A program made the translations under genes and the position numbers. The notes under the pieces are model-generated. The model had not been told where the DNA came from. It was given only the letters and a program-made list of their open reading frames with translations, and made no database searches. This document shows, piece by piece, positions 1-13,306 of a DNA stretch of 13,617 nt. This stretch comes from a virus: the IMG/VR virus record IMGVR_UViG_3300027503_000005; one strand, given 5' to 3'. The stretch's first letter is position 1. Each line of letters opens with the position of its first letter.

Positions 1-127
1 GCATGGGAGACTATGCCGGTCAAGATTGCTTGCTCGACGAAAGCGGCCCAGCCGCGCAGCTCACGGTCGCCAACTACTCGCACAGTGTCGGGCAGATCGT
101 AGGCGGCTCGAGCTGGGAACAGTGGCG
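1..127. repeat. Terminal direct repeat, copy 1 (identical to 13491..13617)
   Basis: Base-by-base comparison: gcatgggagactatgccggtcaag...gctgggaacagtggcg occurs at both window ends with no mismatch. Confidence 0.95.
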
Positions 128-1610
128 GGAGCAGAACAGTTTCGCCGGCGTCGACTCGAGGTTTCAGCTCCGCCCATAGTTCCGGCTCACGTTGGACAGC
201 GTAGGCGGTGACGTGAACGCGGCCGCTGTGTAGATTCCTGGCGGTGACAATAGCGAAGCCGCCTGTGGTTTTGTCTTGCTCGACTGCTGTGACGGTAGGC
301 CTGTTGGTGTCGAAATCTTTGTCGGCTGGTTCCGATTGCAGCTTCGGCCATAAGCCCACAGGCAGCCAGGGGTCGACGAATTGCACCCACTTATTGAGGT
401 GAGCGCGTAGGAACGCTTGCCGGTTAGGTCGCTGGCTTGCCGCCTCGAGCGCAGCTAGTGGAACAGTGCGGCCTAGTCCTGGATTGCCATAGGCCCAGGT
501 TTCGGGCAAATTTTCGTCGGCTTCGTCGGGCGGTGACCATTCAAGGAACAGGTGACTGCCAGCTGTGCCGGCGTCGATGTCAGCAATTCCGCGTTCGCGC
601 CAGGCTCGCATTGCGTGGCTGTTTTCGTCGCCAGCTGTTGAAAACATGGCTACCAGCGGCTCAGGTCGAGCGATGGTAGTGGGCAAGATTCCGTCGTCAA
701 TGACGCTGGCTTTCATGTCCCATATCTCATCGCACAGGAACAGGTCGACGCTTTTACCGTGGATACTGTCCGAAGCTGCTACCGGCTCGAATATCGAGCC
801 GTCAACCAGGGTTAGCCGTTCGCGGCCAGCTCCTCGAGAAACTTTCTCGACAGCGCCTTCGTAGCGTTCCTCGAAAATTCTGACAATGGCAGCCCACTGA
901 TCGACAGCAAGGTTCCGGCTGTTTGCAGCCAGTACCACAGTCTGAGGGCCTTTCTCAGCTGCTCGATGGGTCAACCAGTGGATCGCGAGCAACCTGAGCA
1001 AATAGCTTTTGCCGTTTTGTCGAGCTACCGAAACTAAAGCGGTCCGGACACCTGGGCGCAGCAATCTTTCGGCCGCGTAAATCTGCCAGGGCATTAGCTC
1101 GATGCCGAGGCGTTCAGCTAGCTGTTGGAGGAGGGGGCCATCGGTCGGGCCGCCTGGGTCCGGCGTTGCTAATCGGGGGAGATCATGCCCCATAATTGCA
1201 GGCAGGTCAGCCGCAGCGCTGTTTCGTGCCGTTTCAGGCACCTTTTGGGGTATTTTTTTGAGAGGGTGCGCTGGGGCTTCCAGGGGGTCACTAAAAAAAT
1301 CCGGCGAGGGCTTTGGAATCGGTCGGCTTTTTGGAAGCTGGTTTGGTCGGCCTGTTGTGTCGCTGTGTGGCAGCTTCCGTTTTTTGAGCGCTGCCCCTAA
1401 CCTGGCGCCGTCTTTGCTGTTGCAGGATAGGCAGGCTGGGCGCAGGTTCTCGAGGTCGTCTGTGCCGCCGAGTGCGTGAGCGATGATGTGGTCAACACTT
1501 TCGGCCGGCATACCACAGCGAAAGCATGGGGGCGGGTCCGATAGGGTACCGCCGTAGATCCCATAGACTGCCGCTTTGATTTTTGGGCCGTAGCCTCGAT
1601 TGGTTGCCAT
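1..1610 (-). CDS. HNH endonuclease fused to the large terminase subunit. This is the 5' part of the gene; it runs off base 1 and continues at 13490..13307. Full length is 597 aa.
   Basis: This ORF is missing from the supplied track because it is open at the window edge, so I translated it by hand. It starts at the ATG at 1610..1608: MATNRGYGPKIKAAVYGIYGGTLSDPPPCFRCGMPAESVDHIIAHALGGTDDLENLRPACLSCNSKDG. That segment has CxxC...DH...N...CxxCN, the HNH zinc-finger signature. A basic, Pro-rich linker of about 80 aa follows. The terminase ATPase then shows Walker A (VARQNGKS) and Walker B (VDLFLCDE). The frame is continuous with the 88-aa ORF at 13307..13573, because 1610-83 is divisible by 3. Confidence 0.85.
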   Translation of the reverse strand, partial: MATNRGYGPKIKAAVYGIYGGTLSDPPPCFRCGMPAESVDHIIAHALGGTDDLENLRPACLSCNSKDGARLGAALKKRKLPHSDTTGRPNQLPKSRPIPKPSPDFFSDPLEAPAHPLKKIPQKVPETARNSAAADLPAIMGHDLPRLATPDPGGPTDGPLLQQLAERLGIELMPWQIYAAERLLRPGVRTALVSVARQNGKSYLLRLLAIHWLTHRAAEKGPQTVVLAANSRNLAVDQWAAIVRIFEERYEGAVEKVSRGAGRERLTLVDGSIFEPVAASDSIHGKSVDLFLCDEIWDMKASVIDDGILPTTIARPEPLVAMFSTAGDENSHAMRAWRERGIADIDAGTAGSHLFLEWSPPDEADENLPETWAYGNPGLGRTVPLAALEAASQRPNRQAFLRAHLNKWVQFVDPWLPVGLWPKLQSEPADKDFDTNRPTVTAVEQDKTTGGFAIVTARNLHSGRVHVTAYAVQREPELWAELKPRVDAGETVLLPPLFPARAAYDLPDTVRVVGDRELRGWAAFVEQAILTGIVSH

Positions 1611-1693: not shown

Positions 1694-1863
1694 GCGAATA
1701 GATCGTCGGGGTCGGGTTCGTCAGCTGGTTTGATTTTGTCAATGAGTTGATCGCAAGCGATCATGATGTCCTGGACTGCTAGTTCGCTGTTTTCTTTTGC
1801 TGCTCGATGTATGTATGCGGCCACTGTGTAGGCAATGACCTGTTGGGTGTCGGTTAGTTTCAT
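1690..1863 (-). CDS. 57-aa acidic hypothetical protein
   Basis: Hand translation gives MKLTDTQQVIAYTVAAYIHRAAKENSELAVQDIMIACDQLIDKIKPADEPDPDDLFA. There are ATGA overlaps at both ends, and a GAAAGGAAAG Shine-Dalgarno sequence lies upstream. Confidence 0.5.
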   Translation of the reverse strand: MKLTDTQQVIAYTVAAYIHRAAKENSELAVQDIMIACDQLIDKIKPADEPDPDDLFA

Positions 1864-2318
1864 GCTGTAAGCTTTCCTTTCAGTGCTGCTCGCGCTTTTG
1901 CGATGTTTTCGAGGCTGGTTCCTAATGGTTCTTTATTGGTTCGGGTGTCACTGTGACAGGTCGTTTCGGTCACTGTGTCAGGCCGTAGGGTCACTGTGTC
2001 AGTGCGTTCGCTGCGCGGGGTGTCACTCTGACAGGTCGTTTTTTTGTTTGTCATATTGAGCCGGTAACGTTTTGTTTGCCGGTCTTGACGACGGCCGGCC
2101 CAGCCAGCTTGCTCGATAATTCCTTCGTCGAGTAGCTGCTTGATAGCTCGGGTGACTGTTCTCGGGGAAAGTTCAGTCACTCGGGCTATCGTTGCGACAC
2201 TCGGCCAGGCTGCTCGCTCGTCGTCGTTGTATCGGTCAGCCAGGTAAAGCAATACCAGTTTGCAGCTGGGGCTTCCTGTGGTGGTTTCTAATGCCCATGA
2301 AAGCGCTTTGATGCTCAT
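1860..2318 (-). CDS. Winged-helix (HTH_36-like) DNA-binding protein, candidate replication initiator / replisome organiser
   Basis: The N-terminal sequence SWALETTTGSPSCKLVLLYLADRYNDDERAAWPSVATIARVTELSPRTVTRAIKQLLDEGIIEQ fits the pattern of plasmid and phage initiator HTH domains. The C-terminal half is encoded by the iteron array. ATGA overlaps occur at both ends. Confidence 0.7.
   Translation of the reverse strand: MSIKALSWALETTTGSPSCKLVLLYLADRYNDDERAAWPSVATIARVTELSPRTVTRAIKQLLDEGIIEQAGWAGRRQDRQTKRYRLNMTNKKTTCQSDTPRSERTDTVTLRPDTVTETTCHSDTRTNKEPLGTSLENIAKARAALKGKLTA
1944..2041. repeat. Four phased iterons with near-palindromic core GTCACTGTGWCAG, a candidate replication origin
   Basis: Cores lie at 1947..1959 (gtcactgtgacag), 1969..1981 (gtcactgtgtcag), 1990..2002 (gtcactgtgtcag) and 2022..2034 (gtcactctgacag). 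Start-to-start spacing is 22, 21 and 32 bp. The outer copies share a 23-mer, ggtgtcactStgacaggtcgttt (1944..1966 and 2019..2041). A T-rich tract (T7 at 2039..2045, tttttttgtttgtcatattga) abuts the array. Confidence 0.75.
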
Positions 2319-2830
2319 AGCAGCCCTAGCTTTCTTGCACAGCCAGGCCAGGCTTTCCAGCCGCTGCGCTCGAGAACGCGTTCAGCGATAGCAATTTGCT
2401 GTTCGCGTGATGCTTCCCAGGGGTGCAGCGCATAGTCGAGGCCGCCGAAAGCTCGCCAGGTTGACCAGCTGGTACCGTGCGCGAATTGCAGGCCGCCGCC
2501 GTAGCCGTTGCCAGTGTTGAGATCCCAGCGGCCTGATGATTCGCACCAGGCAAGCTGATCCCATACTGAGGCGTCAGCTGTGAGCTGTGTGAGCTTTGTC
2601 GCTGTGGGGCGTGGCAGCGTTGTGGTGGTGGTGGTGGCGTTGGCTAGCCATTCGTCGAGCTGGCGCCAGGCTTCGGCTGTGGCTTGCTCGTCGACTGTGG
2701 TAGCTGTTGAGCTGCTGGTTGCGCTGTTGCTTCGATAGTTTGGTTGGCTGCCGTATGTGAACATGATTAGCAATAGCAGGCCGATAAAGCCGGCGACAAT
2801 GATGAGGCCGGTGAGCTGTTTTTTGGTCAT
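2315..2830 (-). CDS. Membrane-anchored Rpf-like (resuscitation-promoting factor) transglycosylase
   Basis: An N-terminal TM segment (LTGLIIVAGFIGLLLLIMFTY) is followed by a Ser/Thr-rich linker containing T6. The C-terminal sequence is WDQLAWCESSGRWDLNTGNGYGGGLQFAHGTSWSTWRAFGG...ASREQQIAIAERVLERSGWKAWPGCARKLGLL. This matches the Rpf domain of Micrococcus and Mycobacterium Rpf proteins, including the catalytic Glu in CES and both conserved Cys residues. Confidence 0.85.
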   Translation of the reverse strand: MTKKQLTGLIIVAGFIGLLLLIMFTYGSQPNYRSNSATSSSTATTVDEQATAEAWRQLDEWLANATTTTTTLPRPTATKLTQLTADASVWDQLAWCESSGRWDLNTGNGYGGGLQFAHGTSWSTWRAFGGLDYALHPWEASREQQIAIAERVLERSGWKAWPGCARKLGLL

Positions 2831-3393
2831 TGTTTCGGCTCGCTTCCGGAAGGCCAGCCGAGATCGCCTGGGGCTGTGACGCCTGTTTTGTCGCGTCGGG
2901 CTTGTGTCGCTAATTCGAGAAGCTCGACGAGTTCGCTGGTGGTCAGTGTTTCCGGTTCGCCGGCGTCAACGTAAATTTGAGCGGCTAGGTCTTTATCGTC
3001 AAGGCAAGCTTTCAGCAGCCTGTTTTTGATGACTGCTTTTTTGACGGTGTCGGCGAATTGTTGCCGGCCGGCTATTTCGTCGGCTGACGCTACTGATTTC
3101 GACACCTCGATGCCGGCCAAAGCAAGCGCTCGGCCGACTGCGCTGGTTTCGGCGTTCATTGCTTCGCTGTCGCGTGTGTAGGGCGTTTTGCCTGGGTAGG
3201 GTTCCCAGGCTGTTGCCGTGAAGCCTTCGCTGTGTGGCTGTTTGTAGACCGTGGCGCGTGATTCGATAAAGCAACGGTCGCCGAGCTGTTTAACCTCGGG
3301 CGGTTCTGTCGTTATGACGCCTTCAGGGTACCGCTCGTAAAATCGCACGATGCGGACATTGACGGGGACGTAATCTTTCATGAAATCGCTCAC
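2827..3393 (-). CDS. Hypothetical early protein, possibly a Rad52/Sak-like single-strand annealing or ssDNA-binding protein
   Basis: This is a 188-aa ORF. The segment SEAMNAETSAVGRALALAGIEVS resembles the A-x-[ST]-x-A-x-[GK]-R-A-x(3)-G-I motif of Rad52-type phage annealases. The start may be the GTG at 3393 (GTGA overlap) or the ATG at 3381. The function is tentative. Confidence 0.4.
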   Translation of the reverse strand: MSDFMKDYVPVNVRIVRFYERYPEGVITTEPPEVKQLGDRCFIESRATVYKQPHSEGFTATAWEPYPGKTPYTRDSEAMNAETSAVGRALALAGIEVSKSVASADEIAGRQQFADTVKKAVIKNRLLKACLDDKDLAAQIYVDAGEPETLTTSELVELLELATQARRDKTGVTAPGDLGWPSGSEPKQ

Positions 3394-3527
3394 AGCTCAC
3401 CTGCCAGGGTGATGGCGGCCCATACTGTTGCCGCTGCTGTCCAAAGCCATGAGAACAGGCTAGGCGCTGTTTGTATTGCTACTGCTGCGCTGCCTGTTAC
3501 CAGTAGCGCCGTTGTTGTTTTCCTCAT
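3390..3527 (-). CDS. 45-aa membrane/secreted peptide (hypothetical)
   Basis: Hand translation gives MRKTTTALLVTGSAAVAIQTAPSLFSWLWTAAATVWAAITLAGEL. It is preceded by AGAAAGGTTAAAG, the same 18-bp initiation cassette found at 4060..4077. Confidence 0.5.
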   Translation of the reverse strand: MRKTTTALLVTGSAAVAIQTAPSLFSWLWTAAATVWAAITLAGEL

Positions 3528-3538
3528 CTTTAACCTTT

Positions 3539-3841
3539 CTACCGTTTTGCGATCCACACCTGCGCTCGAGCGCCGGTGTCTGTTGTGACATAGCCAGGGG
3601 CTTGCTCGACTAGGCCGGCGTTTTGTAGTTCCTGCCGGCGTTTTGCTACTGAGCCTCGCAAAGCTCCAAGCCTGTTTGCTATTTCGTAGTCAGCTAGCGG
3701 GACTGCGGAAGCTTTCAGCACGTCGAGAACGCGCATAGCTAGAGTGGCTCGCTGCCGTTTGTTTGCATATGCGGCCGCCTGGCTGGTTTCGGGGTCGGTT
3801 AGGCGTGCCGGTGATTGGAATAGGTTCAGCTGTTCGCTCAT
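3539..3841 (-). CDS. Small winged-helix (MarR-like) DNA-binding protein
   Basis: This is a 100-aa ORF. The segment DPETSQAAAY...RVLDVLKASAVPLADYEIANRLGALRGSVAKRRQELQNAGLVEQ...ARAQVWIAKR follows a typical wHTH pattern. An ATGA overlap joins it to the upstream ORF. Confidence 0.7.
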   Translation of the reverse strand: MSEQLNLFQSPARLTDPETSQAAAYANKRQRATLAMRVLDVLKASAVPLADYEIANRLGALRGSVAKRRQELQNAGLVEQAPGYVTTDTGARAQVWIAKR

Positions 3842-3999
3842 TGTTGCCTACTTTGTAGCGCGATCATGAGCGCTAAAAGCTCGGCTGCTTCGGCCAGCTC
3901 ATCGCGCTCGATGTATGTGAGCAAATTCCACTTCGCTTGCAGGTAAGCCGTGCGGAATGTTTCGGCGAGTAGCTCATCGGCAAAATCGTGATCGCTCAT
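3838..3999 (-). CDS. 53-aa helical hypothetical protein
   Basis: Hand translation gives MSDHDFADELLAETFRTAYLQAKWNLLTYIERDELAEAAELLALMIALQSRQQ. There are ATGA overlaps at both ends. Confidence 0.5.
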   Translation of the reverse strand: MSDHDFADELLAETFRTAYLQAKWNLLTYIERDELAEAAELLALMIALQSRQQ

Positions 4000-4064
4000 G
4001 GCTTGCCTCGCAAATTGTGGTTGCAGCTGTTTGGGCGCAGCTGTGCGCCTGTTTTCTCGCTCAT
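3996..4064 (-). CDS. 22-aa leader-like micro-ORF
   Basis: The sequence is MSEKTGAQLRPNSCNHNLRGKP. It is the first ORF after the promoter-like site. It has a strong SD (AGAAAGGTTAAAGATG) and its stop overlaps the next ATG. It may serve only for translational coupling. Confidence 0.3.
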   Translation of the reverse strand: MSEKTGAQLRPNSCNHNLRGKP

Positions 4065-4104
4065 CTTTAACCTTTCTTAGTGCGCCGATGGTGGCACAGT
4101 CGCG

Positions 4105-4133
4105 ACGTTATTGTGTCGGCTTGCCTGTGTCAA
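4105..4133 (-). promoter_or_regulatory. SigA/sigma70-like promoter candidate for the early operon
   Basis: The minus strand reads TTGACA (4133..4128), then 17 nt, then TAACGT (4110..4105), which fits TANNNT. It lies at the edge of the second-largest non-coding gap (4065..4107), and the -10 element overlaps the TAA stop of the upstream gene. Confidence 0.4.
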
Positions 4134-4320
4134 TGGTTAGCTGCTGAAAGCTGGAAGGCGTGCGGCTGGGCATGATTGCGCCGCCGATAGCGCCGGCAGC
4201 TGTTCCGGCGATTGCCCACAGTGCGCTAGCGTCGGTTCCAGCTGAAGCGACTACAGCGCCAGCGATCAGGGCAGCTAACGCGATGGCTGCGAGTGCGAGT
4301 GTTTGGACAGTGTTATTCAT
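4108..4320 (-). CDS. Holin-like membrane protein with two Ala/Gly-rich TM segments
   Basis: This 70-aa ORF reads TLALAAIALAALIAGAVVASAG...LWAIAGTAAGAIGGAIM. It lies two genes downstream of the endolysin, at the end of the lysis cassette. Confidence 0.55.
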   Translation of the reverse strand: MNNTVQTLALAAIALAALIAGAVVASAGTDASALWAIAGTAAGAIGGAIMPSRTPSSFQQLTIDTGKPTQ

Positions 4321-4522
4321 AGCGGCCGCTTTCGTGGTCCTGAAGGTGTCGGTCGAGTTTGTTCGATATTTTTTTGAGCTGGCGGGTCTGCTTGTCGAGT
4401 TTGCGGCTGTTGTCGCGGTGTTCCTGTGTGTTGAGGTTTCTAGTCTTGCGGGATTGCCAAACTATGCCGGCGAAGGCGAAAAGGCCGCTGACGGCCGCAG
4501 CTGCGACGGGCGCCCATTCCAC
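4313..4522 (-). CDS. Holin-like protein with one N-terminal TM segment and a highly charged C-terminus
   Basis: This 69-aa ORF uses a GTG start located 3 nt after the endolysin stop. It has the TM segment APVAAAAVSGLFAFAGIVW, followed by the charged tail RKTRNLNTQEHRDNSRKLDKQTRQLKK. Confidence 0.55.
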   Translation of the reverse strand: MEWAPVAAAAVSGLFAFAGIVWQSRKTRNLNTQEHRDNSRKLDKQTRQLKKISNKLDRHLQDHESGRYE

Positions 4523-4525
4523 TGG

Positions 4526-5191
4526 TCAGATTTTGCCTTCATTGCGGGGCAGGACTGCTAAAGCGTCGAGCCAGGTGGCGGGCGCTGGGCTGATTACCTG
4601 CACGCCGAGAAATTCGAGCGCCTGGACCTGTGACCAGTCTGTAAGCGCCACTTTGCTGTTTCCGGCAGCGTGGTAGGCGCGTGGCGGGTTGAAACGATGA
4701 TCTACTAGGATTACTGATTTCATGTCGTCTGTCTCCGGTTGTGGTGGGGTTGAATATGCGGGGCGGCCGAGGCTTACTGCTTCGGGGTAGTACCGGCGAA
4801 AGATTCCGACCTTGTCGCCGACGTTGCCTTCGATTGTTGTGAGGCTGTCGCCGTTATTCGATAGGACAATGCCGACGTGGTCGAGGGCGCCTACGTTGTC
4901 CCACTCGAAGAAAACGACGTCGCCAGGTTGAGCTTCGCGGCTGTTGCTAATTAGTCGGCCCTGATTGGCGAACCATAAGGCGCCGGCATCGCACCAGGCG
5001 AAGCCTTTATCTGTTTGCGCTGGTAAAGGTAGGCCGGCATCGTAGAAAACGCGGCTGACCCACATAGCGCACCAGGGGCCGCGTATGCCGTACCAGTCGG
5101 TGATGCCTGGCACGTTGTTAGAACCTGGCGGCTGTTCTGATACTCGAGACCAGGCGGCCGCTGATGCGAAAACGTCGCTAGCTGTTGTCAT
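4526..5191 (-). CDS. Endolysin with an N-terminal CHAP cysteine peptidase domain and an uncharacterised C-terminal domain
   Basis: The catalytic Cys context GPWCAMWVSRV, the His context ALDHVGIV and the TIEGN motif are the CHAP / NlpC-P60-like signature. The roughly 70 aa after the PPQPE linker are of unknown type. Confidence 0.85.
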   Translation of the reverse strand: MTTASDVFASAAAWSRVSEQPPGSNNVPGITDWYGIRGPWCAMWVSRVFYDAGLPLPAQTDKGFAWCDAGALWFANQGRLISNSREAQPGDVVFFEWDNVGALDHVGIVLSNNGDSLTTIEGNVGDKVGIFRRYYPEAVSLGRPAYSTPPQPETDDMKSVILVDHRFNPPRAYHAAGNSKVALTDWSQVQALEFLGVQVISPAPATWLDALAVLPRNEGKI

Positions 5192-5324
5192 CGGTGGCGC
5201 TCCTGGTGTACGAAGCGAAAGCTGCCAGGATTTCGATCAGCTCGTCGCTGCCGTAGTCGAAAGGGGTGTCGAGCGGGATCAGCCCTTCGGCGTCGGGGTC
5301 GGGTAGTTCGTCGGGTTGCGTCAT
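5178..5324 (-). CDS. 48-aa acidic hypothetical protein
   Basis: I trimmed the 63-aa track ORF to the ATG at 5324, which overlaps the upstream stop as ATGA. The product is MTQPDELPDPDAEGLIPLDTPFDYGSDELIEILAAFASYTRSATDDNS. Confidence 0.5.
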   Translation of the reverse strand: MTQPDELPDPDAEGLIPLDTPFDYGSDELIEILAAFASYTRSATDDNS

Positions 5325-5980
5325 GCTGCTGGCGGTGTTGGTGTTTGCGGTCCCATGTCTTCTACCCATATCGCGCAGTCACTGATGACTAGGCGATTCG
5401 CAAAGCCTGTTGAGCGTTGGGTCACTGCTCGAAATGTTTGCGATCCTGTAGCCGCAAAGTGGATTACGAATTCGAGTGTGGCCGATTGAGGTTTGCTGAT
5501 TTCGATCCAGTTTTGCGCTCGCGCTCGAGTGGTTCCCGAACCGTTGTCGACTGCGATTTGTGCGTTGCCGCTTCCGTCTGTCGCGATAGTCGGGCAGGTG
5601 AACGTGCACTTGTAAAGGCGGTTAGCCAGGGCGTTGATGGTGATTGAGCCGTTTGTTACCGCGACGTCACTACCTGCCGGCGTTGAATAATCTACCGAAA
5701 GGGTGTGGCGCCATGAGAGGCCGTTTGTGCCGCCTGATGTCGCCGCGACCAGTCCCCAGGGGCGAGACCAGGGCGGGCGCCAGCCTGTAGTTGCGCCGTA
5801 GTAGACCTCGAGGCTGCCGGTGTCGAGTAAATAGGAAAAGGTGCCTACGACGGGCGAAACGATTGCTGCTGAGCGTGCCGCCGAGTTTGCGAATTGTGGA
5901 ACGCTGTTGTCGCGCAGGTAGGTGTTGAAATTGGCAGCTGTTACTTCCTCGAGAGCTGCCCAGGTTTTGTATCCGCCCAT
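5321..5980 (-). CDS. Minor tail protein / tail fibre (probable receptor-binding protein)
   Basis: The N-terminal sequence KTWAALEEVTAANFNTYLRDNSVPQFANSAARSAAIVSPVVGTFSYLLDTGSLEVYYG...W matches the conserved N-terminus of actinobacteriophage minor tail/fibre proteins. A strong AAGGAG SD is present. It is the last gene of the tail module. Confidence 0.7.
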   Translation of the reverse strand: MGGYKTWAALEEVTAANFNTYLRDNSVPQFANSAARSAAIVSPVVGTFSYLLDTGSLEVYYGATTGWRPPWSRPWGLVAATSGGTNGLSWRHTLSVDYSTPAGSDVAVTNGSITINALANRLYKCTFTCPTIATDGSGNAQIAVDNGSGTTRARAQNWIEISKPQSATLEFVIHFAATGSQTFRAVTQRSTGFANRLVISDCAIWVEDMGPQTPTPPAA

Positions 5981-5991
5981 GATTTTGCTCC

Positions 5992-7251
5992 TTATGCTTT
6001 GAGGGTGTTTGAGTAGTCTAAATAGCCGAGAGTGCCGCCGTTGAGTCTGAAAACATTGACAGCGTAATTCAGCGGGTGCGCCGCACAGGTGACGTACACC
6101 TGCCAGCTGTCGCTTGCAGCGTCATAATTGTGCGTGACGCCTACCGCTAAAGCTTGGGCGACTAGGCCTTCGGTGTTGAGGTCAATGACCTGGCCGATTC
6201 CGTCGGTGAGAAGCGCAGGCCATAACGCTGCGGCTATGTCGGCCGAGGCTTGCGGGTCGAGTACGACGTTGAGCGGTACGCGGTTCGGAATTTGTTTGTA
6301 GAAAAGCAAAGCCAGGTTCGCCCACCATGTTAAATCTGTAGAGCTTTGCAAGACTGTTTGATAGTTCCAGGTTGCGCGACCGTAGTAGTCAATGCTGTCG
6401 GTGTCGCTGACTCGAGTGCTGATGAGGCTATTTGTGCTTGTGGCGTTGATGTCGTTTCTGACGCGGTCATATGCGATGCCTGGCAAAGTAGCTGAGGCTA
6501 GGCCGTCGCACAGGTCGTCGTCGAGGCTGAACCATAAGCTGCGCAAACCTTCATACCAGGCGGTTGCGTAGGTTACGGTGCCGTCAGGTTTTAACGTCAG
6601 CAGGCCGAAATCGCTTACTACAGTGCGGTCAATAGCCTCGAGCGCCTGGGTGGTTCCTAGTGTTTGGAACATGGGCCGGCCGGCGCCAGGTAAAGCAAGC
6701 GAAATTTGTGTTGCGTAATTGACGGCCGTCATGATGTCTGCGATGCGTTGCGATGCGACCTGGCCGCCTGGGAATAGTGCGCTGCTGGGTAGTTCTGCTC
6801 GAGCTAGCCTGGTGAATAGGTCGCCAGCTGTGAACGTCGCGACGTCGTTTTCCCATTCAAGCGACCATACGAAGCCGGTGTATTGCACATAGTCGGTGCC
6901 GGCCCAGCTTGCTGATATGCGTAGGGGCATTCCGACGCGTAGTTTGTTCACTTTTGGTGACAGTGTGTTTGCAGGGTCGAAAACGCGGTCAGGGTCGTAA
7001 AGTTTGACGGTTGCGTAGCCTGGATTTACGCCGAGGAAATCGGTAGAGCTGGTGGCGCCGCGTCGCCATGAGCAGGCCATAACTTCGCAAGCGACGTTCT
7101 CGAATTGTGAGCTGTTGCCTTCTAAATAGTTGCCGGCATTGAGGCGGCCTAGTGTGGGATCGTTGAGAGTAAAGGCGTCATTGTCAGCAATCCACAATTC
7201 GACGCTGAGCGTCGGTAGTTTTGTGTTTGCCGGTCGACTGTAATAGCTCAT
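5992..7251 (-). CDS. Minor tail protein, distal-tail (Dit)-like
   Basis: It lies immediately downstream of the tape measure. The segment SWRRGATSSTDFLGVNPGYATVKLYDPDRVFDP fits the RG...G.a.v.L.d.d..fdP pattern of siphovirus Dit family proteins. Confidence 0.7.
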   Translation of the reverse strand: MSYYSRPANTKLPTLSVELWIADNDAFTLNDPTLGRLNAGNYLEGNSSQFENVACEVMACSWRRGATSSTDFLGVNPGYATVKLYDPDRVFDPANTLSPKVNKLRVGMPLRISASWAGTDYVQYTGFVWSLEWENDVATFTAGDLFTRLARAELPSSALFPGGQVASQRIADIMTAVNYATQISLALPGAGRPMFQTLGTTQALEAIDRTVVSDFGLLTLKPDGTVTYATAWYEGLRSLWFSLDDDLCDGLASATLPGIAYDRVRNDINATSTNSLISTRVSDTDSIDYYGRATWNYQTVLQSSTDLTWWANLALLFYKQIPNRVPLNVVLDPQASADIAAALWPALLTDGIGQVIDLNTEGLVAQALAVGVTHNYDAASDSWQVYVTCAAHPLNYAVNVFRLNGGTLGYLDYSNTLKA

Positions 7252-7253
7252 CG

Positions 7254-8891
7254 TCAGCTATTCCAGGGGAAACGGCCGTTGCGCTGATAGTAGTCATCGA
7301 GCTGGTCGACAATGGCACTGCCGACGTCATATCCGTTAACGCCTGGCGGAATAGTCGCGTTGATAGTCACATTGACTGGCTGGATCAGGCCGGTGCCGAA
7401 TCCGTTGGGGATAATTTGGCCGGCCTGGTTAGGTACGAAAAGCTCAGGGCCTTGCTCGCCGACGACGTAGGCCTTATTTGTGAACACTGAGCCGCCTAAA
7501 GCTCGAAAGCCGCCGAAAATATTCTCGAAAGTACCGCCGAGGAAGCCGCCGGCGCCGCCGAGCAGGTTTCTGATAAAGCGCAAAGCTCCGGCGATGGCGT
7601 CGCGTAGGCCGCCGATTAGTGTTTCCTCGACGAAGCTGATGATGCCGTCAGCTATTGCTTTGCCGATTGAGCGGGCAAGGCTAAAGGCTGGCAGGACTAA
7701 ATCGGCGACAGTTACGGGATTGCTGAAAATTCGGCCGAAAGCTGAAGGCAAGGTACCGGCAATGTATCGAATTACGCCGTCAATGAAGCCGCCGACGAAA
7801 GCTTCGGCTACGTTGCTGCCTGATTTGTTTAAGCTCTGTACGTTTTTGCCGTCGGTGCTTGCGCTGTCAATCGCTCCGACTACCTGGGTGAAGCGCTCGA
7901 AAATTGACGGGATACCGTTTTCAGGGTCGCCGTAAATAACTTTGAGCAGCCATTCGCTTGCCCTCGCTGACCATTCGCGAAAATCAGGCACGTTTTTGTT
8001 GACCCAGTCGGCTACTAATGTGCGCAGGCCATTGAGATCGCCGCCCCAGGTTTCTGCAAGCCTGGACCATACGCCGCTGATGCCGCTTTCGCTGAAGCGT
8101 TCTACAATGGTTGACGCGACGCCTACCAGGTCTTGAAAGATTGGCAGCAATTTTTCGCCGATTGCGATTTGTAGGTTATCTAGTTGCGCTCGCAGTACCT
8201 GGCTTTTGTTGCCTAGCTGGTCCTGTTCGCGTGCGAAAGCTCCGGTGGCTGTGGCGCTTTGTTCCTGTAATGCTGCCAGGGTTCCGATGATGTTTTGCTG
8301 TGTTGTGAGCGTTCCGTTGACTTCCTCGCCTGTTTTGCGAAAGTAGGCGGCCTTGACGCTTGCATCGTTGAGCAGGATTCCGAAGCGCTCGATGGGGTCG
8401 CGTTCGCCTCGAAAAGCTGAGCCGATGGCGTTGATCGCGTCCTCGACGGGGATATCGGCGAAGGCGCCTAGATCGGCTGCGAGCTTTGTGAGTTCTGTGG
8501 AAAAGTTGGCCGCCTCGCGGCCGTTGAGTCCTAAAAAGCGGGCATAAACAGCAAAGCGGTTAGTGGCGTTGATTGCTGCTAGTTCTGATAGGCCTAAGCC
8601 TTTGGCGGCTTGCTCGGCCCACTTTTGCAGCTCGCCGGCAGCGCCGCCATAGTTTTGCTGAAGGGTACCGAGGGCAGCTGACAGGTTCGCTGCTTTGCCT
8701 ACGCCGTCAGCCAGGGCGCTCGCGGCTGCTGTGGCACCTTGCGCGAGTTTGTCGATAGCAAAGGTGGTGACTGCGCTTGATACGCCGGCAGCGAAGCCGG
8801 CGACCTTCGCGCTGAAGCCGTCAAGCTCGTCGCGAGCTTTCCTACTGTCAGCGACGATGTCAACTTTGAGCCGCGCGGGTGTTCCTGCCAT
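7254..8891 (-). CDS. Tail tape measure protein (545 aa)
   Basis: The sequence is Ala/Gly-rich and helical. The core GLSELAAINATNRFAVYARFLGLNGREAANFSTELTKLAADLGAF is typical of the tape-measure family. The C-terminal glycine-rich region and the VGEQGPELFVPNQAGQIIP motif are also typical. The position before the minor tail genes fits as well. Confidence 0.9.
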   Translation of the reverse strand: MAGTPARLKVDIVADSRKARDELDGFSAKVAGFAAGVSSAVTTFAIDKLAQGATAAASALADGVGKAANLSAALGTLQQNYGGAAGELQKWAEQAAKGLGLSELAAINATNRFAVYARFLGLNGREAANFSTELTKLAADLGAFADIPVEDAINAIGSAFRGERDPIERFGILLNDASVKAAYFRKTGEEVNGTLTTQQNIIGTLAALQEQSATATGAFAREQDQLGNKSQVLRAQLDNLQIAIGEKLLPIFQDLVGVASTIVERFSESGISGVWSRLAETWGGDLNGLRTLVADWVNKNVPDFREWSARASEWLLKVIYGDPENGIPSIFERFTQVVGAIDSASTDGKNVQSLNKSGSNVAEAFVGGFIDGVIRYIAGTLPSAFGRIFSNPVTVADLVLPAFSLARSIGKAIADGIISFVEETLIGGLRDAIAGALRFIRNLLGGAGGFLGGTFENIFGGFRALGGSVFTNKAYVVGEQGPELFVPNQAGQIIPNGFGTGLIQPVNVTINATIPPGVNGYDVGSAIVDQLDDYYQRNGRFPWNS

Positions 8892-9385
8892 TAGCTTGCC
8901 TTGTTAGTTTCGGGGCCGATAGCGTCGATGATTTCGTTGATGCCTCGGCTGTAGATCGCTACCCATGTCGGCTCGAGCTGCCGGCCTGTGTCAACGATCC
9001 AGGGGTTAGGTGCAATAAAGAATTGCCTGTCGATTTTGCCGCGTATTTGTTTGGGTAGTTTTTGGGAGCTGCCAGGCCACCCCCAGTGGATAGCGCCGGC
9101 GTAGGGGACTGCTCGACCTACGCCTAGCTCGGCTAGTACCGCTCCGGTGCCAGCTCCTCGCACGTTGGCGCCTACTGTGACGCTGGCGCGTGTCCTGGTG
9201 GCGCTTGGCTTGTGAGCGAAAGCGAGTTTGCCTGTTTTGCGGGGTGCGTTGCGGGCCGCTGCTGTCGTTACCAGTGTCGCGATTGTTTGGTTGAGGTCTT
9301 TCAGGTCAGCTAGTTCGCCGTTGGCTTTTTTGATTGCCTGGCGTAGCTGTGAAGCTCCCTCGACTTTTAACAGCGGCCCAGCCAT
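8891..9385 (-). CDS. HK97 gp10-like head-tail/neck family protein (164 aa), sitting in the slot normally held by tail assembly chaperones
   Basis: I trimmed the 225-aa track ORF to the ATG at 9385, because the 61-aa extension is Arg-rich out-of-frame-looking sequence that overlaps the upstream gene. KVEGASQLRQAIKK...AARNAPRKTGKLA...ASVTVGAN...VPYAGAIHWGWP...RQFFIAPNPW follows the gp10-family pattern. A TAATG overlap joins it to the tape measure gene. Confidence 0.55.
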   Translation of the reverse strand: MAGPLLKVEGASQLRQAIKKANGELADLKDLNQTIATLVTTAAARNAPRKTGKLAFAHKPSATRTRASVTVGANVRGAGTGAVLAELGVGRAVPYAGAIHWGWPGSSQKLPKQIRGKIDRQFFIAPNPWIVDTGRQLEPTWVAIYSRGINEIIDAIGPETNKAS

Positions 9386-9387
9386 CG

Positions 9388-9768
9388 CTAGGCCTTCGTG
9401 ATCGTTCCCTCGACGGGGAGCGAAAGCGAAAAGCTGAGCGGGTCGCCAGCTGCGCCGCCTGCCGGTGGTTTGCGGCCTGCGACTTCGCAGGTGAAGGTCA
9501 CGCCGTTGATATCCATGACAGCGGTGAGCGTTGAGCCTGACGTTGAGGCGGTCCACAGCAGATCGCAAAGGCTGTCAACTTCGCCGAAATCCTGGTAGCC
9601 CTCGATTGCGAGCGCGTAGGTTTCCTGGTTGGCGGTGTAGGTGCCGCAGAACGTGCGAACCTGTGTTTCGCTGTTGCTGGTTTCGAGGCGGGCGTTTGAG
9701 AGCTGGCATTCATAGTCGACAGCCTCGAGCGACAAGGTGAGCGTCGAGATTAGTACGGGGGCGGGCAT
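9388..9768 (-). CDS. Candidate major tail protein (126 aa)
   Basis: The call rests on position (after the terminator-like gene and before the tape measure), a beta-rich sequence, and a good SD (CAGGAGACTGAAACCATG). I recognised no diagnostic motif. Confidence 0.45.
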   Translation of the reverse strand: MPAPVLISTLTLSLEAVDYECQLSNARLETSNSETQVRTFCGTYTANQETYALAIEGYQDFGEVDSLCDLLWTASTSGSTLTAVMDINGVTFTCEVAGRKPPAGGAAGDPLSFSLSLPVEGTITKA

Positions 9769-9772
9769 GGTT

Positions 9773-10153
9773 TCAGTCTCCTGTTGGGATTTTGACGGGG
9801 TAAGGGATTGTTAGACCTACTGCGAACACATTGGCGTCGCCGTAGCGGGCGGGTCCGATGTTGATTTCCTGGGCGAGCGGGCCGGCCCAGGCGATCAGTG
9901 TTTCGAGGTCGGTTTCTAGGTTTTCTACTGATGTCGGGTCAGCTGTTTGAGCTGCTGACATGACAGCGATTTTCAGGTTGTAGTTGTAGCGGGTATGGCC
10001 GCTGATGCTCACTGGTTGTATTTCGTCGGGGGCGACGATCACGCAAGGCACGATTGGAGCGCCTGGCGGGTACCAGCGGTACACCTTGTAGCTGGGGTAG
10101 AGCTGTTCCAGCTCGAGGGCTACCGCTTCGCGGGCGTCAGCGAAAACAGTCAC
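9773..10153 (-). CDS. Tail terminator / tail completion-like protein (126 aa)
   Basis: FADAREAVALELEQLYPSYKVYRWYPPGAPIVPCVIV resembles the conserved N-terminal pattern of actinophage tail terminators (FPDAe.vv..L......v....P....lP.v.v). It uses a GTG start in a GTGA overlap. Confidence 0.5.
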   Translation of the reverse strand: MTVFADAREAVALELEQLYPSYKVYRWYPPGAPIVPCVIVAPDEIQPVSISGHTRYNYNLKIAVMSAAQTADPTSVENLETDLETLIAWAGPLAQEINIGPARYGDANVFAVGLTIPYPVKIPTGD

Positions 10154-10497
10154 GAAACTAGGCCTGACGTCGAAAGCCAGGGCGCTAACAGCACGCCGTA
10201 GCGCCGTATCAGCACAGTGTTGACAGTGGCCGGCACGTTTTCGATCCAGTTGACCTGCAAGGTGCCGTCGATTCCGACGCCGGCTTTGTAAAGCTCCGAA
10301 GCGATAAACAGCGCAGCGGTTACTACAGCGTCAGGCACAGCGTCGAGCGGTTCGCCTTCGCTGTCCTCGAGTGTTACCAGGCCAGCTATGGCTTCGGTCG
10401 CTGTCATTACAATGCGGTCGCCTACTGTGGCGTCAATAGGGGCGCCAAGCTGCTGCTCGAGCTGTTCTACTGTGATCCAGGGGTAGGCGAGTGACAT
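10150..10497 (-). CDS. Head-to-tail adaptor (gp6-like connector)
   Basis: It is the first gene after the capsid gene. WITVEQLEQQLG...ATEAIAGLV...VVTAALFIASELYKA fits the gp6-like head-tail connector pattern. Confidence 0.55.
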   Translation of the reverse strand: MSLAYPWITVEQLEQQLGAPIDATVGDRIVMTATEAIAGLVTLEDSEGEPLDAVPDAVVTAALFIASELYKAGVGIDGTLQVNWIENVPATVNTVLIRRYGVLLAPWLSTSGLVS

Positions 10498-10560: not shown

Positions 10561-12057
10561 CTAGGACAGGTCGCAGTAAGCGAAGGCGCCAGGGTATCCC
10601 ACTGACAAAGCGCCGTAGCCGTACACTCCGAGGTCGATTCCGAGGATCGAAACGTCGACTGCGCGGATTTCGACTGGTTGACCTGCGCGTTCCCACCAGG
10701 TAGCGCCGAGGCTTGAGCCTAATAAAGCATGGCCGGCCGGAAGGTCGCGCTCGAGGTAGACAGTGAGGCCGTCTGCGCTCATGGTCGGGGTCATGCTGCC
10801 GAATTGTACGCGGCCGTCCCAGAAAGCTGGGCGGTCCGAATCAGCCAGGCTGATCCAGGCGGGCAATAAATCGGGAGCGATAGCCAGGAAAAGCGGGCCT
10901 GGCGGGGTTGCTGAAAAATCGAGGGCGCCGATCAAGCCGCTGACGATGTCGACTGGTGACGATGAGCCTACTGTTGTCGCTCCGCCTGCTGCTGTAATGA
11001 GGCCGGACACTGCCGCGGCGTTTGTTTTTTGGCCGAAGCTTACCGAAAGCGCCTCGAGGATAGCTGCGACAGCTGAGGGGTCGGAACGGTCGACTGCTTG
11101 AATCGAAAGTTCGTTAGCGCCGGCGAAGGTGCGAACGGATACTTCCTCGAGGGTGATCGAGGCGTCATCGCTGTTGACTTCGTCGAATTCGTCAACCTGC
11201 TCGTCAACGGTGGGCTTGTTGTCCCAGGCGGGGTAAGTGACCTTCATGCCGGAAGCGGGCAAAGCGCGGTTGGCGATGGCGTTGATGGTTGGGCGGCCTG
11301 GGTTGATGAGGCCGACGATTTCGCCGACGTAGGCAGGCGGGACAATGCCGGCGAGGTCGGTGGTGGTTGATTGTGAAAGCGCAGCGCGTACTTCAGCGAC
11401 GGATAAATCGCCTTTATTTGCTGACGCGATGAGCGACGCGACGCCGGCCAGGTCGAGGCTTTTGGCCGCTGGGCGGGTCGAGTGCGGGATTGGGGCAGCT
11501 GCGACGATTGTCGGCTCGGCTGCTGCTTCTACTGCTTCGGGTTCTTGCATTGGTTCGGGTTCCTGTTCTGTTTGGGGTTCCGGTTGGGGTTCAGTGTTGG
11601 TATTTTCTGACGCTGCTACTGCCATAGCTCGAGCATCGTCGAAAGCTGGAAGCGCTACCTGGCTTACTTCGCGCAGCTGGCTGGCTGCTACTTCTAAAGC
11701 TTCGGCGCTGTGTTCGTAGTCGATTAGGTCGACTCCGACGCTGAGGCCGTCGCGTAGTTTCTCGGCTGCTTCTAACAGTGCCAGGTCGCCGGCTGGTGTT
11801 TCAGGCACTCGAAAACGGCCGTAGAGTCCTGCTTCGTCTTGCCAGGCTTCCTCGAGGTAGCCGAGTGGAGCTTCGGCCTGGTGATCGCGCAGCAATTTGA
11901 CGCGGTCGAGCTGTTCAGGCAGTTGGACACTGCCAGGAGCGAAGCGGGTAGGGCCGGCGCTGGTGTTACCGATGACGCCGAACGGGACTAGCCGGCCGAC
12001 GATAGAACGTCGCTCGAGGTCGGCTGCTGTGATGCTGTAGCTGGCTTGAATTTTCAT
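10561..12057 (-). CDS. Prohead (HK97-type S78) protease fused to an HK97-fold major capsid protein (498 aa)
   Basis: The N-terminal ~150 aa carry LLRDHQAEAPLGYLEE and DGLSVGVDL, the His and Ser contexts of HK97-family prohead proteases. An acidic Pro/Glu linker (TEPQPEPQTEQEPEPMQEPEAVEAAAEP) follows. The remaining ~300 aa are capsid-like. The gene lies directly after the portal gene. Confidence 0.85.
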   Translation of the reverse strand: MKIQASYSITAADLERRSIVGRLVPFGVIGNTSAGPTRFAPGSVQLPEQLDRVKLLRDHQAEAPLGYLEEAWQDEAGLYGRFRVPETPAGDLALLEAAEKLRDGLSVGVDLIDYEHSAEALEVAASQLREVSQVALPAFDDARAMAVAASENTNTEPQPEPQTEQEPEPMQEPEAVEAAAEPTIVAAAPIPHSTRPAAKSLDLAGVASLIASANKGDLSVAEVRAALSQSTTTDLAGIVPPAYVGEIVGLINPGRPTINAIANRALPASGMKVTYPAWDNKPTVDEQVDEFDEVNSDDASITLEEVSVRTFAGANELSIQAVDRSDPSAVAAILEALSVSFGQKTNAAAVSGLITAAGGATTVGSSSPVDIVSGLIGALDFSATPPGPLFLAIAPDLLPAWISLADSDRPAFWDGRVQFGSMTPTMSADGLTVYLERDLPAGHALLGSSLGATWWERAGQPVEIRAVDVSILGIDLGVYGYGALSVGYPGAFAYCDLS

Positions 12058-12064
12058 AGTTTCC

Positions 12065-13150
12065 CTAAAGTGGTGGCAGGTTTTCTAGTTGGCGTACTTC
12101 TGCAATAGTTAAAAAGCCGGCTTCGAGCGCTTGAGCGTATGCCTGGTAACGGCCGGCGGTGTCGCTTCGCAGGTAATCGTCGAGAGCGAACCGGACTCGG
12201 TGGCCGCGTGGTGTCACGTCGCTCATGCTGAGGCGGCTTTCGATTGCGACCAGGTAGGGCCGAAGCGTTGTGTCTACCAGGTCGCGCCGTTGCCCCTCGG
12301 TAGTGGCATAGGTGAGGCTTGAATTTGTCGGGGCGTTGAGGTAGCGGGTCGGTACGTTGAGATGACGTGCAATTTCCGCAACCTGGTGATCGCGTGAGGG
12401 AATTAGCGCGATTTGTTCAGCGTCGAATTGTTGACGCTCATAACGGAAGCGTCGATTCAGGTAGCCGGTGGTGCGCTTACGTCGGCCTGTTTCCCAGGAT
12501 TGGAGCAGCTCGCTTACTTTGTTCGCTGAAAGCTCGGGGCCGTCATCGTAGATAATGCCGGTGGGTAGATCGGTGGAGGCGATGCGGGCAGCGGCCGCCT
12601 CGAACAGTAACGCTGTGCGGATAGTGCGGCCGGCGATCTCGAGCAGGCCAGGCCAGTGAGCTGCGATAGCTATGACGTCTTTTGCTGGCAGCAATATGTC
12701 GCCAGTGTTGGGCAGGCCGCTGATGCGGTACCTGGCCTGACTCGAGTCGGGTGGCGTGACGTTTTCGTAAGGCACATAGCGGACATGAGCAGGGTATCCG
12801 TCTGAATAGCGGCTAATGACTACCAGGTAAGCGGTCGGAAATAGAACTAAATCCTCGACTACTTTGGTCACTGTCGTCGATGTCGGCTCGAGCGGGTCGA
12901 GCTGCTCGATCAGTCCGTTGGGTACGCTTTCGAGCGCAGCGTTGTATCGGCGCAGCGGAAAGGTTCCTACTGTGCCGGCTATTACCTGTAGGCCTTGCGC
13001 TACCGCCGGTACTTTCCAGGCGCTATCGCGTGATAGCGCAATGTCTGAAATATCGGGCAGCGATATGGGGGCGAGGTTCGCCATCGTCGCGGTCGATAAA
13101 TACGGGACACTAGCTTCAATTTGTTTTGGTCGGCGTGTGAATAGGCCCAC
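12065..13150 (-). CDS. Portal protein (HK97 portal family, 361 aa)
   Basis: It lies between the terminase and the protease-capsid gene. The segment DHQVAEIARHLNVPTRYLNAP...LTYATTEGQRRDLVDTTLRPYLVAIESRLS matches the conserved portal core (eIar.f.vP..ll). The start is uncertain: GTG at 13150 or the internal ATG at codon 23. Confidence 0.8.
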   Translation of the reverse strand: MGLFTRRPKQIEASVPYLSTATMANLAPISLPDISDIALSRDSAWKVPAVAQGLQVIAGTVGTFPLRRYNAALESVPNGLIEQLDPLEPTSTTVTKVVEDLVLFPTAYLVVISRYSDGYPAHVRYVPYENVTPPDSSQARYRISGLPNTGDILLPAKDVIAIAAHWPGLLEIAGRTIRTALLFEAAAARIASTDLPTGIIYDDGPELSANKVSELLQSWETGRRKRTTGYLNRRFRYERQQFDAEQIALIPSRDHQVAEIARHLNVPTRYLNAPTNSSLTYATTEGQRRDLVDTTLRPYLVAIESRLSMSDVTPRGHRVRFALDDYLRSDTAGRYQAYAQALEAGFLTIAEVRQLENLPPL

Positions 13151-13164
13151 GCGCCTAGTCTAGC

Positions 13165-13296
13165 TCATTCGTCAACGGGAAGCGGTGACGGTAATACTGT
13201 GCGAGCTTGCTCGAGCTTTGCTGCTAGCTGAGCTGACGTAGCTGCGACGAAAAGGCCAACGATGAACGCTGCGACGATGCTGAGAGCTGTTTTCAT
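13165..13296 (-). CDS. 43-aa single-pass membrane peptide between the terminase and portal genes
   Basis: Hand translation gives MKTALSIVAAFIVGLFVAATSAQLAAKLEQARTVLPSPLPVDE. The ATG lies 10 nt after the terminase stop. Confidence 0.45.
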   Translation of the reverse strand: MKTALSIVAAFIVGLFVAATSAQLAAKLEQARTVLPSPLPVDE

Positions 13297-13306
13297 GGCC
13301 GGCACT

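Follow-up and report, generated by a model that had tools for sequence, protein, structure and literature searches.

We find that the DNA of IMG/VR virus record IMGVR_UViG_3300027503_000005, a stretch of 13,617 nucleotides analysed here in full and called the window, is the genome of a complete, very small siphovirus-type actinophage and carries a gene (2315..2830, minus strand) for a free-standing resuscitation-promoting factor (Rpf). In Actinobacteria, Rpf proteins are the classic case in which cleavage of peptidoglycan is tied to the end of dormancy, and phages generally replicate poorly in non-growing cells. We favour, with a probability of roughly 0.45, the reading that the phage keeps a host-type Rpf muralytic enzyme as an accessory (auxiliary) gene whose product would be exported and act in cis. 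This reading draws on the Rpf domain and its active site, the export-type N-terminus, the coupling of the gene to its neighbours, the non-lysis contexts of related genes, purifying selection and the dispensability of the gene in sister phages. Stand-alone secreted Rpf genes are already known from cultured actinophages; what stands out here is a large, undiscussed, phage-specific freshwater clade that includes a 13.5-kb genome.

The gene starts with an ATG at 2830-2828 and encodes 171 amino acids before its stop, as defined by an open reading frame (ORF) scan and by matches to Pfam, PHROGs and the PDB. An earlier note, made from the letters of this stretch, had described a 171-residue ORF with a hydrophobic N-terminus, a Ser/Thr linker and a complete Rpf domain. 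All of these details are correct, and two further points had been missed, namely that the gene lies on the minus strand and that the window is a whole circular genome. Pfam family PF06737 (Transglycosylase-like), named in that note as the profile to try, matches at 98 bits against a cut-off of 27 (E = 4.9e-28), over residues 85-164 and profile positions 2-77 of 77, which amounts to a full-length domain. In PHROGs the protein falls in phrog_29757, 'transglycosylase'. A phmmer search of the PDB returned Mycobacterium tuberculosis RpfB, RpfC and RpfE (E = 4e-23 to 1e-18), and the domain is 52% identical to that of M. tuberculosis RpfB. In the alignment to RpfB, 'WCESSG' lies over 'GCEAGG' and 'WPGCA' over 'WPVCA', with a single 4-residue insertion in the phage protein (HGTSWSTW against QG----TW). 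Read from the minus-strand codons, the catalytic Glu of WCESSG is Glu97 (2540-2542), aligned with the Glu of RpfB 'CEAGG', and the two cysteines that align with the RpfB disulfide are Cys96 (2543-2545) and Cys164 (2339-2341); these, together with the WPGCARKLGL ending, confirm the active-site description given earlier. An AlphaFold2 model built on 22 relatives has a predicted local distance difference test score (pLDDT) above 90 throughout the lysozyme-like, lytic-transglycosylase-like catalytic domain (residues 85-171, 2318..2578, minus strand), which ends in a phage-type C-terminal tail, ARKLGLL. Foldseek placed the model on the RpfB catalytic domain 4emn with a template modelling (TM) score of 0.95 and a root-mean-square deviation of 1.1 Å, and all 15 significant PDB fold matches are RpfB, RpfC or RpfE structures. 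Judged by its sequence, the product is a genuine free-standing Rpf-family protein with an export-type N-terminus; the protein itself is an ordinary member of its family.

Membrane and signal calls were made with hydropathy and AlphaFold2. The protein begins with MTKK, followed by LTGLIIVAGFIGLLLLIMF, and reaches a mean Kyte-Doolittle hydropathy of 2.76 over residues 6-24. The hydrophobic helix takes up residues 3-27 (2750..2824, minus strand), and AlphaFold2 models a helix at residues 3-25 with a pLDDT of 80-93. It contains no Cys and no clear Ala-X-Ala site, and may be a signal-anchor for Sec or else a signal peptide that looks uncleaved; Lys3 and Lys4 predict a topology with the N-terminus inside and the C-terminus outside. 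Between helix and domain lies a linker (residues 28-84, 2579..2749, minus strand) composed of a Ser/Thr-rich stretch, a conserved predicted helix at residues 48-64 and a disordered stretch at residues 75-85. It includes a TTTTTT tract (residues 66-71, 2618-2635, minus strand), and Ser and Thr make up 36% of residues 28-83.

The gene lies within the replication module. Its ATG shares a 4-nt overlap (ATGA) with the stop of the upstream gene for a 188-amino-acid protein (2827-3393, minus strand), and its stop overlaps by 4 nt with the start of the HTH_36 replication initiator (152 amino acids, 1860-2318, minus strand). Such double overlaps are the pattern typical of translational coupling, here apparently with the replication genes. 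The earlier note had set the gene apart from the lysis cassette, and the distance bears this out: 1,696 bp and six ORFs separate the stop of the endolysin gene from the Rpf start. The endolysin (221 amino acids, 4526-5191, minus strand) consists of a CHAP domain (PF05257) and a C-terminal region without a family match, and no hydrophobic or export segment was found in its 221 residues, so that endolysin and Rpf would stay in different compartments until the holin fires. Two small ORFs of 69 and 70 amino acids follow the endolysin (4108-4522, minus strand). Each encodes one strongly hydrophobic helix and is a candidate holin by position and hydrophobicity, with no Pfam or PHROG match.

The separation from lysis genes extends to related loci. 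A scan of IMG/VR yielded 67 further Rpf loci on contigs of 4-190 kb with a locus GC content of 0.38-0.66, which were dereplicated to 27; viral and genomic Rpf loci alike were retrieved with motif patterns, which biases the sampling. We then assigned Pfam families to three ORFs on either side of Rpf, 158 ORFs over the 27 loci. In these loci Rpf lies beside genes of DNA metabolism; the neighbours include N6_N4 DNA methylases (7), PD-(D/E)XK nucleases (5), ribonucleotide reductases and ribbon-helix-helix proteins (3 each), Prim-Pol (2), and WhiB, HTH_36, ThyX and AAA_25 (1 each). None of the 158 matches an endolysin, holin, capsid, portal or tail family. Rpf proteins of the same architecture are carried by no fewer than four types of phage genome that are unrelated to one another: the mini-phage lineage of the window, in which Rpf copies only 52-55% identical sit in the same slot; ~31-kb phages with ERF, WhiB and DNA methylases, in which Rpf lies between methylase/WhiB and Prim-Pol plus terminase; phages that reach 79 kb or more and encode DnaE, RecA and WhiB; and a ~29-kb phage with an SU10-type capsid, in which Rpf follows DnaB. 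The shortest of the Rpf-carrying phage contigs is 13.5 kb long and the longest at least 190 kb, with a locus GC content of 38% to 66%.

Two sister mini-phage contigs of 14,154 and 14,349 bp cover the Rpf region and show what the lineage looks like without the gene. Both keep the order of endolysin, small membrane proteins, helix-turn-helix (HTH) gene, Rad52-like gene, slot, HTH_36 initiator and fused HNH-large terminase (HNH-TerL), and in both the slot holds two ORFs of 76-89 amino acids, without family match, in place of Rpf (10597-11110 in contig L141). The endolysin is of the CHAP type in L141 and of the Amidase_2 type in the second sister contig, and the GC content of the sisters is 64-66%. 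By tblastn there is no Rpf anywhere on 12.2 kb of L141, whose capsid, portal and CHAP endolysin are 74%, 73% and 69% identical to those of the window; across the sisters, identity to the window is 68-74% for the major capsid protein (L141, L142) and 62-69% for CHAP. Since close sisters with the same lysis cassette lack it, Rpf counts as accessory rather than as a lysin that the phage must have, and by this sequence comparison it lies outside the core virion or lysis programme of the mini-phage lineage. Flanked by the Rad52-like gene on one side and the initiator on the other, this slot looks like a cargo hot-spot, with Rpf in the window and unrelated ORFs in the sisters.

These results bear directly on the role of Rpf in lysis. 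The earlier note had suggested that Rpf and the CHAP endolysin form a two-enzyme lysis system like that of RipA and Rpf. In its obligatory form this idea is weakened by the Rpf-less sisters that retain a lysis cassette and by an endolysin without export signal. A partner of the RipA type would be a secreted NlpC/P60 endopeptidase; the CHAP endolysin has no export segment and is unlinked to Rpf. A milder version, in which the exported Rpf is a non-obligatory aid that adds glycan cleavage to the CHAP endolysin, weakens the wall beforehand or digests it jointly, and lets non-growing cells lyse efficiently, can call on the muralytic fold of Rpf, on an endolysin whose only recognised domain is CHAP beside an unmatched C-terminal region, on a holin-family gene two genes upstream of Rpf in one phage type, and on RpfB and RipA, which reportedly act in synergy in mycobacteria. 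According to a 2025 conference report, some mycobacteriophages depend on RpfA and RpfB of the host to lyse and replicate optimally (PMC12908700). However, the gene is 1.7 kb and six ORFs away from the endolysin and coupled to replication genes, lysis families are absent (0/158) from the neighbourhoods of the 27 viral loci, sisters with CHAP or Amidase_2 and a holin cassette do without Rpf, and the predicted export of Rpf is independent of a holin while the endolysin has no signal. We therefore hold a helper role in lysis to be unlikely.

A related candidate was a signal-arrest-release (SAR) endolysin such as P1 Lyz or R of phage 21, which are also muralytic enzymes with an N-terminal membrane segment and are exported by Sec without a canonical holin. 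The helix of the window protein is strongly hydrophobic (Kyte-Doolittle 2.76), with 7/22 residues (32%) being Gly, Ala, Ser or Thr, and looks more like a stable anchor than like the Gly/Ala-rich segment of P1 Lyz. Moreover, the Rpf gene does not stand beside a holin or pinholin gene, and a separate cytoplasmic endolysin and holin candidates are present. The SAR reading was rejected on gene context, the Rpf-less sisters with the same cassette and the apparent stability of the hydrophobic helix in the membrane.

To describe the family, we searched ~5.8 billion proteins, obtained 1,714 relatives and read traits on the best 120. Almost all of these 120 are 160-215 amino acids long, 92 have an N-terminal hydrophobic segment with a Kyte-Doolittle value of at least 1.8, in several the N-terminal segment closes with a lipobox-like ...G-C or ...A-C motif in place of a plain helix, and none is frameshifted or truncated. 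Across an alignment of 22 members at ~50% identity (A1), C96, E97 and C164 are invariant, and conservation extends to the 4-residue insertion and to the poly-Thr tract that precedes the domain. The ratio of nonsynonymous to synonymous substitution (dN/dS) over 26 closely related viral pairs, which are not independent of one another, is 0.03-0.36 with a median of 0.20; the viral Rpf genes are under purifying selection. The gene thus combines traits of an auxiliary gene: a host homologue in a housekeeping context, variable presence among related phages, and purifying selection.

Two other features of the family were observed. Some phage Rpfs (P0003, P0034, P0035; L045) have two more cysteines around the active site (C-E-C-G-G-N-x-x-C), and these may form a second disulfide beside the catalytic Glu. 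In larger Rpf phages (L008, L011, L138 and the P0006 contig), whiB lies zero to four genes upstream of Rpf, a combination found at one locus only in the 27-locus survey; whiB and Rpf may form a 'host physiology' module in some lineages.

The closest cellular relatives point to the origin of the gene and to the host. Cellular Rpfs were scanned in one genome per species with two motif patterns. The nearest are those of freshwater Acidimicrobiia, represented by metagenome-assembled genomes (MAGs) and by the 2.35-Mb chromosome of isolate KE-4, and their identity to the phage protein is 61-70% over the best tblastn segment, 67-72% over the domain and 64% by BLASTP to L086. Like the phage protein, they begin with a membrane helix, followed by a spacer that is rich in Thr and Pro and contains TTTT tracts, and then by an Rpf domain that has the 4-residue insertion, and their locus GC content is 58-60%, compared to 57.7% for the window; unlike it, they have a longer spacer and lie in a housekeeping neighbourhood. 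The KE-4 gene (L082 5539-6255) has tatD on one side and ksgA on the other; after ksgA come a GHMP-kinase gene that is ispE-like (a weak Pfam match), a glmU-like gene, prs and the gene for ribosomal protein L25. The tatD-rpf-ksgA-ispE-like order is also that around rpfB in M. tuberculosis, which argues that the KE-4 gene is a resident cellular gene. The KE-4 protein has neither DUF348 nor G5 domains. Rpf of the Acidimicrobiia type, with the same upstream sequence, is also present in a MAG labelled 'Bifidobacterium breve isolate MsH-01oct19-144' and in a 2-kb 'Microbacteriaceae' contig (L087, L083), whose taxonomy probably reflects mislabelling or mis-binning.

In a neighbour-joining tree of 109 distinct Rpf domains (about 85 residues), a single clade unites the window sequence with 51 of the 53 viral and all 9 Acidimicrobiia sequences and leaves out the other 45 cellular actinobacterial Rpfs. 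The phage proteins share a C-terminal tail, [AS]-R-K-x-G-[LW]-x, in 63/66 viral copies and in essentially all of the 120 best metagenomic matches. No such tail is found in 8 of the 9 Acidimicrobiia genes, which stop two or three residues past the second Cys, and this argues for an old phage Rpf lineage and against a fresh capture, an age that we assign tentatively from these sequences. Recent capture of a host gene was rejected on the phage-specific tail and on the GC content of the Rpf gene, which is in line with the rest of the genome. From the Rpf similarity and the GC content we tentatively propose a freshwater member of the Acidimicrobiia as host. The earlier note's broader assignment to an actinobacterial host agrees both with these cellular relatives and with the capsid, whose relatives are small actinophages.

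Could the gene nonetheless be a passenger, acquired from a host not long ago and without a role in infection? Its absence from the sister mini-phages and its place in a variable slot would fit. However, a genome of only 13.5 kb, with about 22 genes, has retained it, the same slot in the lineage holds Rpf copies only 52-55% identical, dN/dS is about 0.2, the phage-shared tail absent from Acidimicrobiia genes marks an old lineage, and the gene matches the genome in GC content. We consider a functionless passenger very hard to credit.

Phage Rpf has been known chiefly from tape measure proteins. A total of 233 phage records had an Rpf match, mostly from Mycobacterium or Gordonia phages, and the matches listed for these lie in tape measure genes. 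The statement in the earlier note that phage Rpf occurs mainly in such proteins holds for most of these records, but about 20 of the 233 carry stand-alone Rpf genes that were already annotated. In TM4, the Rpf-type motif of the tape measure protein favours infection of stationary-phase cells (PMC1796659). The window protein shares with the tape-measure versions (TM4, Barnyard, Giles and other Mycobacterium and Gordonia phages) a homologous Rpf domain in an actinophage. In contrast to them, it is a separate 171-residue ORF in the replication module, and the tape measure protein of the window (545 amino acids) has no match to PF06737 even at E <= 1. A separate exported protein beside a tape measure without Rpf would act from the infected cell outward and not from the virion inward. 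This bears on the idea that the entry task of tape-measure Rpf is done here by a separate polypeptide in the virion. Tape-measure motifs are indeed the commonest phage context of Rpf, and a few Rhodococcus phages have an Rpf match in genes annotated as 'minor tail protein'. However, the N-terminal membrane helix would take the protein away from the cytoplasm, the site of virion assembly, and Rpf lies outside the structural module here and in every surveyed locus. A virion-associated entry enzyme was rejected on the export signal and gene position, and we regard it as highly improbable.

The stand-alone genes of cultured actinophages are closer counterparts. The earlier note had proposed a survey of phage genomes for such genes, and they do exist and had been annotated before. 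Carriers are Rhodococcus phages Weasels2, Grayson, Peregrin, Trina, NiceHouse and REQ1, Streptomyces phages such as BRock, and Mycobacterium abscessus prophi79-1. Weasels2 gp46 has a signal peptide, Rpf and then a C-terminal extension; BRock gp43 has a signal peptide, Rpf and then a LysM-like end; prophi79-1 gp102 has a signal peptide and Rpf and is annotated 'resuscitation-promoting factor'. They resemble the window protein in combining an N-terminal export signal with an Rpf domain outside the annotated lysis cassette: BRock gp43 is three genes from the annotated endolysin, and REQ1 Orf63 (358 amino acids) lies between primase/polymerase and terminase, a position like that in the window phage. 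Unlike the window protein, they have cleavable signal peptides ending in Ala-x-Ala and an N-terminal Rpf domain followed by LysM or another extension, and they lack the Thr-rich spacer and the 4-residue insertion; domain identity is 47-54%. Records of Arthrobacter, Microbacterium and Curtobacterium phages gave no match to the Rpf query. The best viral structure match of the window protein is a 175-residue UniProt entry, 'Transglycosylase-like [uncultured Caudovirales phage]', with 168 aligned columns, and UniProt holds proteins of that name with the same architecture.

Compared to the actinobacterial Rpfs (RpfB, RpfC, RpfE and Micrococcus luteus Rpf), the window protein has the same catalytic domain, Glu, disulfide pair and N-terminal hydrophobic export signal, but its gene is viral, it lacks DUF348, G5 and LysM domains, and it carries the insertion H-x-x-S-W-S-T-W common only to the freshwater clade. 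PMC1084345 describes Rpf as confined to Actinobacteria, and cellular Rpfs as secreted growth factors that act on other cells. A full-text search found no paper that discusses stand-alone phage Rpf genes, which is not proof of absence. Neither Rpf nor transglycosylase is mentioned in the freshwater miniphage study (PMC6802176), the Nanopelagicales phage isolation paper, the Rhodococcus diversity paper that includes Weasels2, or the small-actinophage preprint.

The secreted nature of cellular Rpfs raises the prospect of action in trans, with Rpf released by signal-peptidase cleavage or at lysis to wake dormant kin of the host for the progeny phage. Many family members have lipobox-like or cleavable-looking signals, and the cultured-phage Rpfs have classic cleavable signal peptides. 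In the window protein, however, the long, very hydrophobic helix without Cys or clear Ala-X-Ala favours retention on the producing cell, and a diffusible signal would be diluted in open lake water. We judge a trans-acting signal to be quite improbable.

The reading that we favour, an exported accessory enzyme acting in cis, suggests the following course. Translation of Rpf would go along with that of the replication genes, and Sec would insert the protein so that its N-terminus stays inside. The Thr-rich spacer would hold the domain on the outer face of the membrane, with peptidoglycan within reach, and the protein would either be held there or be released. Glu97-dependent cleavage of glycan strands could then remodel the wall of a slow-growing or dormant cell, by loosening or turnover as proposed for cellular Rpfs, and might generate muropeptide growth signals. 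An oligotrophic host might thus be kept in, or pushed to, a growth-competent state, which would allow phage DNA replication and a larger burst. Two published observations fit this course: the tape-measure motif of TM4 favours infection of stationary-phase cells (PMC1796659), and some phages infect Rpf-deficient mycobacteria less well (PMC12908700, a conference report). A pre-nicked sacculus would be a compatible secondary gain at lysis.

Several points weigh against the cis-acting reading. First, signals of expression do not help to time the gene. A promoter consensus scan of the window found 5 sites, compared to 3.7 expected from shuffled controls, terminator-like sites numbered 18 compared to 18.2 expected, and two coding-strand intergenic gaps contain no convincing terminator. 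Since the scans do not rise above the controls, early and late expression cannot be read from the sequence, and the label 'early' in the earlier note follows only from gene order in a genome whose genes all face one way. Second, Rpf enzymes are muralytic, so the protein could serve a purely lytic role. Third, the reading presumes that freshwater Acidimicrobiia can enter a dormant state that responds to Rpf. Lastly, the hosts encode an Rpf of their own, which makes the gain from a phage copy less than obvious.

A conserved, host-like Rpf with an export-type N-terminus among the replication genes of many unrelated lake phages suggests manipulation of the wall or growth state of oligotrophic freshwater Actinobacteria. 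If this is true, phages actively alter the growth or dormancy of uncultured lake bacteria, and selection is strong enough for a genome of ~22 genes to give 4% of its length to Rpf. The wider proposition, that the phage-specific exported Rpf clade represents a widespread 'anti-dormancy' or wall-priming function in phages of abundant slow-growing freshwater Actinobacteria, is a tentative one that we think possible rather than probable. The anti-dormancy idea is directly testable, as a 13.5-kb genome is small enough to be synthesised with and without Rpf, and a freshwater Acidimicrobiia isolate with a related chromosomal Rpf exists (KE-4).

The genome that carries the gene is itself unusual in size. 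Positions 1..127 are identical to 13491-13617, and this exact 127-bp direct repeat at the ends of the window indicates a circular or circularly permuted genome with a unit of 13,490 bp. In independent contigs from other samples the same genes recur, with their order circularly permuted. A second contig, L004, has no exact terminal repeat and exceeds the 13,490-bp unit by 563 bp; both of its ends hold parts of one 419-residue gene (311 and 295 amino acids), which indicates that the ends overlap. The window encodes about 22 genes, all on the minus strand, at a GC content of 57.7%, and scans for tRNA and Rfam families found neither. Rhodococcus phage RRH1 has a genome of about 14.2-14.3 kb. The 13,490-bp genome would be smaller than that of RRH1 and among the smallest tailed-phage genomes known. 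RRH1 was called the smallest phage of the actinophage database in a 2022 preprint, and a study of freshwater phages describes actinophage 'miniphages' as small as 14 kb (PMC6802176). When the whole window was compared by Megablast with 50,697 phage records, none matched, and with no match at the nucleotide level no named phage cluster can be assigned. The closest cultured relatives of the capsid, at 26-32% identity, are from Curtobacterium phage Penoan (15.3 kb), Arthrobacter cluster AN (~15.5 kb) and Microbacterium cluster EE (~17.4 kb). A protease-capsid fusion is common to all three, and the window phage shares its genome plan, including this fusion, with the small actinophages (RRH1, cluster AN, cluster EE and Penoan) and the freshwater miniphages.

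Reading along the minus strand, the structural genes begin with an HNH-large terminase fusion of 597 amino acids, with the HNH domain N-terminal, which spans the junction (13307-13617 joined to 1..1610); no separate small terminase was recognised in the window. A similar HNH-TerL fusion (602 amino acids) is present in the sister mini-phages. Between terminase and portal (12065-13150) lies a 46-residue ORF (13165-13305) that encodes a strongly hydrophobic helix, which is unusual at this position. The portal is followed by the protease-major capsid fusion (498 amino acids, with a Peptidase_S78 prohead protease; 10561-12057), two small head-tail genes (10150-10497 and 9773-10153), the major tail protein (9388-9768), a 164-residue protein (8891-9385), the tape measure protein (7254-8891) and two tail-tip proteins of 419 and 219 amino acids (5992-7251 and 5321-5980). 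A short ORF (5178-5369), of 63 amino acids by ORF scan and 48 as called on other contigs, precedes the endolysin. Beyond the candidate holins come a 109-bp gap (4000-4107), a 53-residue ORF (3838-3999), a winged-helix protein of 100 amino acids (3539-3841) and a 55-residue ORF (3390-3557), and a 57-residue ORF (1690-1863) follows the initiator; all of these ORFs are on the minus strand. The 46- and 55-residue ORFs have no family match.

The earlier note had placed Rpf between annealase-like and initiator genes. The initiator downstream of Rpf is borne out by its HTH_36 domain and by matches to phrog_1032 (E = 2e-28) and phrog_391, whereas the annealase-like assignment of the upstream gene finds weak support. 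The 188-residue protein falls in phrog_23738 and has no match in Pfam, even at E <= 1, or in a profile search of PDB sequences. The top three PDB fold matches of its model (pLDDT 84) are all human RAD52, with an E of about 0.01, a probability of 1.0 and a TM score of about 0.5. On this weak match, the protein is probably a single-strand annealing protein that resembles Rad52. Its family is large (716 matches) and has no assigned function, and some homologues carry PF27148. Going by the modelled fold, these proteins may be Rad52-like annealases of small actinophages that had not been recognised as a family.

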